A stretch of DNA of 15,564 bases from Phycisphaerales bacterium (GTDB lineage Bacteria > Planctomycetota > Phycisphaerae > WQYP01): positions 1 to 15,564 of the forward strand of contig DAIDJN010000045.1 of NCBI GenBank assembly GCA_027451365.1, given 5' to 3'. The position numbers and the translations under genes were made by a program. The notes under the pieces were generated by a model. It was given only the letters and a program-made list of their open reading frames with translations, ran no database searches and was not told the origin of the DNA. Position 1 is the stretch's first letter; each line of letters opens with the position of its first letter. Shown in pieces: positions 1-2,597 of this stretch.

Positions 1-1
1 A

Positions 2-97
2 GCCAAACGCCTGCGGCGACTGGCCCCCAACCTGACCATCCTCACTCCCGGCCAACTCGCCGAAACGCTCAAGGTCACAACTCAACGCACGGAATAA
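2..97 (+). CDS. 3' end of a gene entering from the left, possibly the C-terminus of a PIN-domain (TA toxin-type) protein
   Basis: Open frame from 2 to TAA 95-97 reads AKRLRRLAPNLTILTPGQLAETLKVTTQRTE*. The 'L.ILTP.Q/EL' ending resembles PIN_3-type protein C-termini, but only 31 aa are visible. Confidence 0.35.
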   Translation, partial: AKRLRRLAPNLTILTPGQLAETLKVTTQRTE

Positions 98-485
98 TTC
101 CGGACAACGGGCGGCTAAAAAGAAAAGCCTCACCACTGACCGCTTGTGCGTCAATGCGCAATCCCGACGCGTCGGGACGGCAGCCGCGTGGAACCCAGAA
201 GAACCCACAAAAAGTCCTTGGGCTCCTGGCAAGGCATGAGGCGACTTGATCGACCTCGCCATCCTGAATGGGGCCGGCCTCGAAATAAAAGAAGTGACGC
301 GATCCCGGCAAACCCGGATTGACGCCGAATGGATGCTTGGCATACCCCGTGCTCGTCCATATTCCTCGCCGCCGCCGCAGGCCCTTGCCCCGGGCTTTGA
401 TTCAATTTGAGACAATGGCCGCCGATGCGGCCACAAAAAAATATTGTCACCACACTTGACTTCTCTTCATGGATGCAGTGAGCGA

Positions 486-740
486 TTATAAAGACTGACG
501 TAGCCGGGTTTGTGATGGCGGAAGCTCGCGTAACCGCCGCAATAGATTGTCGCAGGCTTCGTCCTCCGAGGTGAAATATTCCTCGTCAAAGCAGGAACCT
601 CTCTCCGAATAGTAGACGCACCACCTGCCGGTTTCGAATGAAAGGCACAGTTGGTCATTGGGCAACCCCCCGTCCAAACAGTACACATTCGGATTAAATT
701 TTTCGCCATCGAGAAGCCGCTGTAGTGCATCCTTTTTCAT
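486..740 (-). CDS. Putative immunity protein for the upstream TNT toxin (Imm59-like, small and acidic)
   Basis: 84 aa, starting 3 nt after the TNT stop with an AGGTGG RBS-like sequence upstream. The motif 'Y.L.GG.PN...CL.....W.VYYSERG......F.SE.EAC' is of the type commonly found downstream of TNT/DUF4237 toxins. Confidence 0.7.
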   Translation of the reverse strand: MKKDALQRLLDGEKFNPNVYCLDGGLPNDQLCLSFETGRWCVYYSERGSCFDEEYFTSEDEACDNLLRRLRELPPSQTRLRQSL

Positions 741-743
741 AGT

Positions 744-1130
744 CTATCCACCTACCCTTTCGATATAACCATTCTTGATAAGCGATTGAATACTCTGGGG
801 AAACTGGTACTGAATGCCGCCGCCAGACTGCTGAAACCACGGTGCGGCCCTCCCGCTCTGGACGTCCAGGGGTTTAACAACGCGGAACATGCTATAAGGG
901 GCCTCGCTCGCACCAGGCGGCAAAGACCGCATATAAGTGGGCGTACCTGCCGGAGAGGCGAAGCGGCCAGTATCCAGGCCATAGCGGTCAAACATCTCGC
1001 CGGGCTGGAGAGACCGAGTGACAGGAATTTCGGCAAAGCCATTGTTTGGCGGATAGTATGGTTGGATACGATGGTCTTTGGGAATGGTATCCAACGAACC
1101 CGGTGCACTCTCTGCGGCAAAATTGCTCCT
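744..1130 (-). CDS. Orphan TNT-family (tuberculosis necrotizing toxin/DUF4237) NAD+ glycohydrolase toxin tip
   Basis: Contains YPPNNGF, L.PG..FDRYG...GRFASP.GTP...RSLPP and APWF.Q.GGGIQY. The frame stays open upstream of the TTG at 1094 to 1130 (RSNFAAESAPGSLDTIP...), with no good ATG/RBS, consistent with an orphan module. Confidence 0.88.
   Translation of the reverse strand, partial: RSNFAAESAPGSLDTIPKDHRIQPYYPPNNGFAEIPVTRSLQPGEMFDRYGLDTGRFASPAGTPTYMRSLPPGASEAPYSMFRVVKPLDVQSGRAAPWFQQSGGGIQYQFPQSIQSLIKNGYIERVGG
1107..1120 (-). repeat. Toxin-tip junction repeat, copy 2 (TTGCCGCAGAGAGT on minus strand)
   Basis: 13/14 identical to 1869-1882. Encodes (F)AAES directly ahead of the TNT domain. 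Confidence 0.7.
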
Positions 1131-1544
1131 CTATGAAGCCCGCACCTCCCTCGTCGAATCAATAATCTTCTGACCCGCAACACGTCCCGCATTCAGAAAT
1201 GCAATTGGAGAAGAATCAACACGGTGATACTCTGCCGCTTCCAAAACGATCTTCACCTTGTGCAACGGACCTGAGCCTCCGAGCATCAGTACATCAAGCA
1301 ATCCGAAGATAAACCAATCCGGGTATCCCAGTCGACGAAGCTCGACATCCTCAGGAGCCGAATCCACAACTTCAAAAGTTGAAGCAGGAAGGGCGCTCAA
1401 CGTAACTTTGGCAAACTCATAACGTGGCCCAAGATGTTGGTCGCGCTCTCCCGTTACCCTCAGTGGGGCTTTCAGGGGCAGGGAAGCCCGCTTACACAGC
1501 CCTTCAGCCCAAAGTGTAATGTAGTCTTTCATTTCAAACCTCAT
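1131..1544 (-). CDS. Stand-alone EF-G domain IV-like protein in the immunity position
   Basis: PLHKVKIVLEAAEYHRVDSSPIAFLNAGRVA aligns by eye with EF-G domain IV PVVDVKV.L..GSYH.VDSSE.AFKIA. VTGERDQHLGPRYEFAKVTL aligns with VEGK..KQSGGRGQYGHV.I. No GTPase or other EF-G domains. The ATG abuts the toxin stop (TAAATG); an alternative start at 1532 has a GAGG RBS. Confidence 0.8.
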   Translation of the reverse strand: MRFEMKDYITLWAEGLCKRASLPLKAPLRVTGERDQHLGPRYEFAKVTLSALPASTFEVVDSAPEDVELRRLGYPDWFIFGLLDVLMLGGSGPLHKVKIVLEAAEYHRVDSSPIAFLNAGRVAGQKIIDSTREVRAS

Positions 1545-2381
1545 TTAGTGCTGCGGGTGGGCAGCCGGGTTAAAGTATTCAGGAAATTGTTGAATAACCG
1601 ACGGATGATATAACCGTGCCTCATACCCGGGCTCGTACGGAATGCCCTGCCACCGAAGCGTCTGTAGGTGTGCCTCACGGGCCGACACTCCCTGATCCAT
1701 CAACCCTTTCTCGTAGATTTCATGGTTATAGAAATTAATATCCTGCGACGTTGTGTTCCCTGCGCGTAAACGTCCGATCATCGCTTCGTTGGCCGGATCA
1801 TCAAGTGCGTTGATTTCCGGCCGGGCAAGGTGCTGCTCGATCCGAAGGATGCCTCCTTCGGTGATCGTACCCTCTGCGGCAATGAAAACACCACTGGCGA
1901 CGCCGTACCGGGCGCTGCGGTCGTATCGGATGGTCCGCCGGAATCGTACCGGTGGGTCGCGGCCAAAATGGCTGGCGGTTGGGTAGATGGCCAACCGCTG
2001 GAACGTGCTTGGAATTCCGGCGTGAGGCGCGGGTATTGCCGCTGCGCCACCCGCGGGGCCGGAGGTTATATGGGTTTTGGTGGTCGCCTGCCACTGTATT
2101 TGGCCAATTAGCGTCAGGTGTTCCTTGTTGGCCGAGCAGATTGTGTTGCGGAATTCAAATCGGATCGCACTGCCGCAATTTTCCCAGACTCGGTCTTGCG
2201 GGGTGCAAGGCGTATTGGCTGATACGCTGGACGGACCAGCCAGGCCAGAAGCCAGGGCGATTAAAGCGGCTAAAATAAAAAGCAGCGGCGTCAGCCAGGC
2301 GAGGCCCGCCCTGATCCGGGAAAGTGTTATTTTTTCTTGAGTCGCGTGCATGGACAACAGTTTAACCGATGGTGCCGACAT
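1545..2381 (-). CDS. Putative secreted polymorphic toxin: N-terminal signal/TM segment, linker, C-terminal HExxE..H toxin domain
   Basis: Hydrophobic segment RIRAGLAWLTPLLFILAALIALASGLAG..VSA. Junction YD..FIAAEG at about aa 153-171. The C-terminal ~108 aa (ITEGG...HL.R..DPANEAMI.RL...FYNHEIYE...EAH...LYHP) resembles tips seen on Rhs/bacteriocin-type toxins. It is followed by a translationally coupled small gene. Confidence 0.7.
   Translation of the reverse strand: MSAPSVKLLSMHATQEKITLSRIRAGLAWLTPLLFILAALIALASGLAGPSSVSANTPCTPQDRVWENCGSAIRFEFRNTICSANKEHLTLIGQIQWQATTKTHITSGPAGGAAAIPAPHAGIPSTFQRLAIYPTASHFGRDPPVRFRRTIRYDRSARYGVASGVFIAAEGTITEGGILRIEQHLARPEINALDDPANEAMIGRLRAGNTTSQDINFYNHEIYEKGLMDQGVSAREAHLQTLRWQGIPYEPGYEARLYHPSVIQQFPEYFNPAAHPQH
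1869..1882 (-). repeat. Toxin-tip junction repeat, copy 1 (TTGCCGCAGAGGGT on minus strand)
   Basis: 13/14 identical to 1107-1120. Encodes (I)AAEG at the trunk/tip boundary of the 278-aa ORF. Confidence 0.7.
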
Positions 2382-2399: not shown

Positions 2400-2597
2400 C
2401 CCGCGGCAATACGCGAGGGATGAACCTGATACAAACCCGCCAACTCACCAATCGTCCGCTGGCCTTTCATCGCCTCCATGGCCACCTTGGCTTTGAACTG
2501 CGACGTAAACTGACGACATTTTACCGACATAAAATAGACTCCGAAAACTGGAAAAAAACTACCTTAGCAGCGCGCCCAGTTTTTGGGGAGTCTTACA
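2400..2597 (-). mobile_element. Truncated IS3-family element: left inverted repeat plus 5' part of orfA
   Basis: The minus strand begins TGTAAGACTCCCCAAAAACTGGGCGCG (IS3-type 5'-TG end) at 2597. ATG 2530 gives MSVKCRQFTSQFKAKVAMEAMKGQRTIGELAGLYQVHPSRIAA (HTH_Tnp_1-type OrfA). Similarity is lost near 2400. Confidence 0.8.

Follow-up and report, generated by a model that had tools for sequence, protein, structure and literature searches.

Known displacement systems and the architecture of the locus

How polymorphic toxins change their tips and still keep the old ones is a long-open question; in the sections of the literature that address it, the published proposals are homologous or illegitimate recombination, and no integrase is known (PMC2935791, PMC3967940, PMC5361080). 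In the displacement of Rhs C-termini, as described by Jackson et al. (2009, PMC2935791) and Koskiniemi et al. (2014, PMC3967940), orphans retain a stretch of homologous core whose length varies, in Salmonella 522 bp at 95%, and tips are exchanged by homologous recombination; the authors know of no integrase that co-occurs. The locus described here resembles that system, as outlined in those papers, in its constant trunk, its variable tip and immunity gene, the silent tips shifted downstream and the circular intermediate that is proposed. It differs in that the DNA shared is at most 12 bp long, lies at a fixed position, is conserved at synonymous sites and is common to unrelated trunks, and in that the trunk is a short signal-like leader and not an RHS core: the 278-aa protein has no Pfam match, and its trunk, which carries neither an RHS core with DPxGL nor a VENN or MafB-N trunk, is too short for these classes.

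In the T6SS effector-immunity arrays of Vibrio cholerae, the relevant sections of Kirchberger et al. (2017, PMC5361080) describe successive insertion at the head, likened to integrons, whereby the old effector is lost and the immunity genes alone stay, and they report no evidence for an integrase. Unlike these arrays as described there, whole old tips remain here behind a copy of the core. The parts of Zhang et al. (2012, PMC3482391) concerned with such loci note that polyimmunity loci often adjoin XerC/D recombinases, and the Sec-exported toxins that they treat, e.g. MafB, share with the present ones a signal peptide (putative here), a short lineage-restricted leader, a variable tip and an adjacent immunity gene. 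Our leaders depart from the MafB type as given there in lacking a Pfam match, in falling into at least four unrelated types and in measuring 50-120 residues.

A further parallel is offered by integron cassettes, which are likewise promoter-less, bounded by a short core and arranged in arrays ordered by insertion, toxin-antitoxin genes being found in the arrays of both. In contrast to integrons, with their IntI, attI and attC, the site here is inside a reading frame and yields protein fusions; moreover, the attC core has the consensus GTTRRRY, which by inspection the GCCGCA-R-AG core does not fit. A search of this genome (93% complete) for an integron integrase gave no TIGR02249 match at E 1e-20. 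The exchange of a tip together with its immunity gene looks more like a gene-cassette system than like ordinary recombination, in bacteria of several lineages.

The window, i.e. the whole stretch of 15,564 nucleotides that was analysed, carries the locus on its minus strand in the order trunk and tip A (2381-1545), immunity 1 (1544-1131), a 10-nt gap, a start-less TNT module extending to 744, and immunity 2 (740-486). The trunk, of type A (1883..2381, probable start 2351), has no Pfam match and belongs to a set of eight related copies in the genome. It is followed by the first site copy (1869..1882; 6-bp centre GCCGCA at 1875-1880, 9-bp core at 1872-1880) and by tip A (1545..1868), an unnamed helical domain with an H-E-x-x-E...H signature. 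Immunity 1 (1131..1544, likely start 1532) is a stand-alone EF-G domain IV-like protein (PF03764, 24.6 bits against a cut-off of 24). Its stop codon (1131-1133) is separated by 10 bases from the second site copy (1107..1120; centre at 1113-1118, core at 1110-1118), and this spacer (1121..1130), which together with 1119-1120 forms the pyrimidine-rich left flank of that copy, has no in-frame start codon for TNT. The frame of the trunk-less tip (744..1106) is open from the site to the stop, and the domain belongs to the NAD-glycohydrolase-type TNT family (PF14021, E 1.2e-31, 109 bits, cut-off 27). Immunity 2 (486..740), without a Pfam match, would be its immunity gene by virtue of its position, and it travels with TNT.

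An earlier sequence-only reading had described a 14-bp repeat that is 13/14 identical, in frame, positioned at the start of each toxin domain and, in its second copy, 10 nt past the immunity stop; every one of these properties was confirmed by measurement. The minus-strand 14-mers 1882-1869 and 1120-1107 agree at 13 of 14 bases, are 762 bp (a multiple of 3) apart and stand in the same codon phase, where they are read (I)AAEG and (F)AAES. An assembly chimera was considered and dismissed by reasoning, since 14 bp is below the usual assembly word size and these flanks were seen again in separate data sets.

The surroundings of the locus are themselves repetitive. Positions 1..483 are inter-unit DNA that shares 98% identity with the end of contig C79 and in part matches C62; its 105-185 part is also found upstream of trunks on C9, C40 and C76, and the whole borders on the 3' end of an ORF that is read on the plus strand and whose 32 residues match no Pfam family. 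At the other end, an insertion-sequence remnant with a weak transposase HTH match (minus strand, 2409..2597, or 2396-2597 in its wider delimitation) adjoins the upstream end of the trunk, joining its upstream DNA at a short shared stretch; many of its genomic copies end contigs.

Conservation of the core and boundaries of exchange

The bare repeat is at chance level: the window has 26 such 14-mer pairs, against 20-35 in 20 Markov simulations, and 30% of 300 simulated 2.1-kb loci had at least one. The case therefore rests on the position of the repeat and its conservation elsewhere. The two leading T's of the 14-mer differ among loci, and the part that is conserved is the GCCGCA-R-AG core, to the left of which the two copies in the window agree at 8 of 40 bases.

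This genome (G000) has eight trunk copies on five contigs, 75-90% identical over 140-440 bp, which form two types with different linkers and have in common a hydrophobic signal-like start (in type A the stretch to about 2217, read by eye). All seven intact copies (7/7), from both types, go over to a different tip at TT-GCCGCA-R-AG, and in the eighth (on C9, L001:7266-7440) the switch lies at a copy of the core that is internal and out of frame. Similarly, a profile of trunk B gathered 33 proteins, and 20 of the 28 clear ones read LAA[EK] ahead of varied tips that include TNT (P0039), Tox-REase-7 and AHH. Homologous trunks thus switch tips at the motif as the sequence-only reading had anticipated; its further expectation of a TNT-fused trunk holds for related trunk types (P0039 and the array L110), with no such fusion found on this trunk. 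A site matrix trained on 28 junctions from other genomes placed the eight known G000 sites within the top nine of 925 core matches, a ranking that partly reflects trunk kinship, and it also picked a second trunk-less tip (C65:965, rank 8) and a junction at C65:236. Tips cross between unrelated trunk types, and most of those found have no Pfam match.

The constant N-terminal trunk with variable C-terminal toxin domains, the adjacent cognate immunity gene (a SMI1/KNR4 gene follows another tip) and the trunk-less toxin-immunity cassettes downstream place the locus among the polymorphic toxin systems. The tip-bearing toxins are small and probably secreted; we infer both their secretion and the toxicity of the tips from sequence. 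The same neighbourhoods hold other genes: an RNA 2'-phosphotransferase (Tpt1/KptA) gene lies directly 3' of an immunity gene in the toxin array on C9 of this genome (L001:3256-3831), and between toxin units elsewhere are a PIN-like gene (L002:2815-3294) and a nucleotidyltransferase-HTH gene with its neighbour (L135:15000-16167), which resemble the toxin-antitoxin cargo of cassette arrays.

A broader trunk profile matched in 9 of 45 genomes of the family. The trunk-B profile matched G000 alone among 401 genomes of the phylum; the trunk-C profile, run against 401 genomes around G457, matched G457 alone, apart from two weak unrelated matches. A degenerate trunk-C pattern gave no loci in viral contigs and four in genome contigs, three of them unrelated genes, and trunk-C and XerC queries of the viral contigs returned no useful match. 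A TNT query of 351 genomes found four other genomes with TNT, none with the core (one reads GCG GCT GAG).

The conservation is at the level of DNA. Protein homology led to 26 junctions that read A-A-E/K, related ones among them, and in 25 the codons are GCC GCA (G000 7/7, G455 4/4, G020 1/1, G002 1/2, L110 7/7, tip-A loci 5/5), as against 79 of 1247 in the genome background. Since these junctions are related by kinship, a control was run inside tip A: in five rows that are 41-70% identical pairwise, none of 13 conserved degenerate columns shares a codon and pairs share 43 of 151 four-fold codons, whereas GCC GCA is present in all five. The synonymous positions of the core are thus nearly fixed where the rest of the tip is saturated, in line with a check that the sequence-only reading had put forward; none of the outcomes which that reading had named as refuting was observed. 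Further to the right, position +15, a third codon position, is A in 33 of 39 curated junctions, over seven different residues (other third positions 4-12/39; background 219 of 925 cores). This position was not a selection criterion for the 39 junctions; the DNA motif itself served to find several of these, which biases positions +1 to +9 of the set. Counter-cases exist: among 12 tip A loci with a readable junction, six have the core and six are without it; G002 has GCC GCG twice, one of which reads A-A-G and falls outside the 26; and one tip of L185 starts GCC GCC AAA.

Trunk-less modules locate the crossover more closely. Five tip and immunity modules without trunks, from three genomes, begin at the core 3 to ~70 nt past an immunity stop: the one in the window, C65:965 of this genome, L135:4963, L135:11595 and L138:3906. 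A site at L045:3412-3460, where the stop of an EF-G-IV-like gene overlaps GCCGCAGAG, was left out of this count, as only 14 codons follow. The TNT piece was found with 5-8 differences in contigs of four public runs (three studies), and in all four the match extends up to base 1118, where the core begins, with different cassettes ahead of the TNT module; wherever its flank is readable, TNT is an orphan in these runs. In runs X4 and X5, the next 30 bases past 1118 are identical to those found ahead of a different tip at L135:4963, meaning that two orphans exchanged with 12 shared bases and no trunk. Run X1 has a variant of tip A and its immunity gene, ~77% identical (129 differences in 560 bases), ahead of a 99% identical TNT. 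In all three pairs having the same tip and a different left side, 9-13 of 40 bases are identical to the left of the core and 31-37 of 40 to the right. Boundaries fixed at 1118, together with the trunk-less modules, indicate that exchange falls in a core of at most 12 bp without trunk homology; recombination at the motif, whether site-specific or through microhomology, had been proposed from the letters of the window and gains support here. That tips are exchanged at the core is highly probable on these sequence comparisons, as both the site-specific and the microhomology readings place the event there. No 1120-1882 deletion joint or circle of 762 bp was seen in the contigs of the four runs, none of which carries this exact allele. 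Separately, an aberrant joint was noted by eye in G002 (L136, minus strand, 3086), where a tip is truncated from the core to an internal look-alike.

A proposed recombination site and its rivals

With a probability of roughly 0.55, we read the repeat as the core at which crossover takes place in a sequence-specific recombination site, located at the trunk/tip border of small polymorphic toxins. On this proposal, tip and immunity cassettes would be excised as circles between two sites, and a circle would enter another site by one crossover, so that the resident trunk acquires the new tip in frame and the former occupant comes to lie further downstream, after a second core copy. Cassettes ending in the next trunk would build tandem arrays of whole genes, and short ones ending just past the immunity stop, like that of 762 bp, would leave silent trunk-less tips. 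The circles, the directionality and a tyrosine recombinase acting in trans are all predicted steps, for which the leading candidate enzyme would be the PRK01287 XerC of primase-XerC elements.

The shape of the site bears on this proposal. The consensus is YCTT-GCCGCA-RAGR plus the conserved A at +15, so that the 6-bp centre stands between YCTT and RAGR as an imperfect inverted pair. Complementarity across the 4-bp flanks is 0.44, 0.79, 0.59 and 0.56, about twice the background of 0.20, 0.27, 0.29 and 0.20. In trunk genes the left arm also codes for L, V or I; in the five trunk-less modules, whose left flank is non-coding, 15 of 20 flank pairs are complementary. In an axis scan the inverted arrangement came second with 0.60; first place went to a trivial axis within the GC core. 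The inverted flanks are about 4 bp long and above background, the symmetry ending by position 4-6. Tyrosine-recombinase sites have a short asymmetric spacer (6-8 bp) between inverted arms, and the arms of the known ones are far longer than ~4 bp.

As for the enzyme, a search for a linked recombinase, which the sequence-only reading had suggested might lie outside the window, came back empty for the trunk contigs of this genome: its six tyrosine recombinase genes (the genome is 93% complete) are all on other contigs. Across five site-bearing genomes, PRK01287 was above cut-off in one, an integron integrase in one, IS110 in one and a resolvase in two, and a close PRK01287-like match was found in one of 331 genomes of the class. 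PRK01287 genes sit in HTH-primase-XerC elements, between an intact toxin and immunity pair and the downstream orphans. Of 16 such loci examined, with L190 judged from annotation alone, the core described here is present in two and a related one in a third; in most of the remainder the junctions are of the RHS or CDI type, with longer homology. The element, with its primase, HTH and above-threshold recombinase, was not found in this genome or beside this locus. An uncultured Verrucomicrobia locus (L110, 1-8952) has eight tandem units of signal, trunk, tip and immunity gene with three trunk types, one unit bearing TNT; all eight use GCCGCAAAG. In the middle of the array is a PRK01287 XerC that is short at its N-terminus, no primase being seen there. 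In L183 a core junction is directly 3' of xerC. On a Janthinobacterium lividum plasmid (L170), the resident toxin and four trunk-less tips start with the nine bases TCGGCAAAC (S-A-N), a related core, at 2185, 9375, 10335, 11392 and 12323, beside an HTH-primase-XerC element. The PRK01287-type XerC is accordingly named as a candidate, not as a finding. Two further observations concern these elements: in five Verrucomicrobia loci a similar xNRV[W/G] leader follows xerC, as judged by eye, and an 11.3-kb circular record from Lonsdalea populi (L191) consists wholly of RHS-tip, immunity, SymE, HTH, primase and XerC units, and may be an excised form of the element.

The main alternative, which we regard as less probable, dispenses with a dedicated enzyme: the GC-rich core of 9-12 bp would be a self-reinforcing microhomology used in RecA-independent slippage, single-strand annealing or homology-facilitated illegitimate recombination, such that loci keeping the commonest sequence stay in the exchange network. 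The boundaries at the core and the lack of a linked recombinase agree with it, a mechanism of this kind was proposed for the Vibrio arrays in the corresponding section of Kirchberger et al. (PMC5361080), and the out-of-frame switch on C9 and the truncated tip of G002 fit it, but a recombinase acting on cryptic sites accounts for both joints equally well. The A at +15, which lies beyond the variable positions +13 and +14, is not readily explained by microhomology, and neither are the pyrimidine left flank of non-coding orphans and the start of five orphans at the same base in different flanks.

Classical C-terminal displacement, with homologous recombination in a long trunk of which the 14 bp would be the last eroded remnant, is improbable as the sole mechanism. 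Homologous exchange is possible in this genome given the identity among its trunk copies and the 98% identity of the downstream 483 bp between two loci, and it is the established model for rhs in the sections cited above (PMC2935791, PMC3967940). Orphans with a long core fragment of variable length are its hallmark, whereas the five found here are without any trunk, swaps between orphans took place over 12 shared bases, and tips move from one trunk type to an unrelated one. That A-A-E/K is a mere protein linker or processing site and the DNA repeat incidental is very improbable. Two points speak for it, the chance level of the bare repeat and the in-frame position of the motif in nearly all trunk genes, but its synonymous positions are almost fixed in a saturated tip and the core persists in untranslated orphans, where it marks a DNA boundary. 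The motif may also have a role in the protein.

A translation-factor-like immunity protein and the meaning of the site

Tip A has four invariant residues, H54, E55, E58 and H72, and is found on several unrelated trunks, both RHS-like and short. Searches for its family and fold gave no Pfam match and no clear structural match (best Z 4.9), and its matches in the Atlas are unnamed clusters, with recognition below the reliable mark. The model of immunity 1 (pLDDT 87.5) matches EF-G in Foldseek (E 1.7e-9), so that profile and fold both place it with EF-G domain IV (PF03764). Homologues, searched at 75-240 aa, are stand-alone proteins of 127-163 aa; tip A precedes such a gene in 23 of 80 loci, the other 57 being without a tip A match. 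No description of a stand-alone EF-G-IV immunity protein was found in the open-licence literature.

Structure prediction supports binding of tip A to immunity 1: the complex scored 0.82 against 0.01 for the best control. Of 157 solved complexes 116 reached the mark on this measure, as did 2 of 215 mismatches; contacts agreed by 100% between runs, and the partner pLDDT was 91 or higher. In the predicted interface, residues 37-42 and 108-114 lie over the H/E cluster; in alignment they correspond to the QTGGRG and YHEVDSS loops of EF-G. Immunity 1 is accordingly predicted to plug the HExxE site of tip A. These models lead to the proposal that tip A may be a metal-dependent toxin attacking the tip of EF-G domain IV, its immunity protein being a decoy.

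The feature is real, and the displacement of toxin tips by a short DNA-level site common to several lineages is, as far as the open-licence literature goes, new: no description of this site, or of tip swapping by primase-XerC elements, was found there, and the supplement of PMC3482391 may list some of the loci. A wider picture can be offered tentatively, at somewhat less than even odds: recombinase-driven, integron-like tip cassettes would use one in-frame site on unrelated trunks in different phyla, served by roaming primase-XerC elements and drawing on a shared pool of tips, with one cassette encoding a new metal-dependent toxin that targets the EF-G domain IV tip, and a domain IV decoy as its immunity protein.

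With the crossover narrowed to a DNA-conserved core of at most 12 bp that works across unrelated trunks, and with a candidate enzyme family, the question of how these toxins change their tips becomes testable. If the exchange is site-specific, it would constitute an in-frame, domain-swapping recombination system. The site can also be used as a search key for new toxin tips, and the pairing of tip A with an EF-G domain IV-like immunity protein suggests that the target is a translation factor and that immunity works by a decoy.
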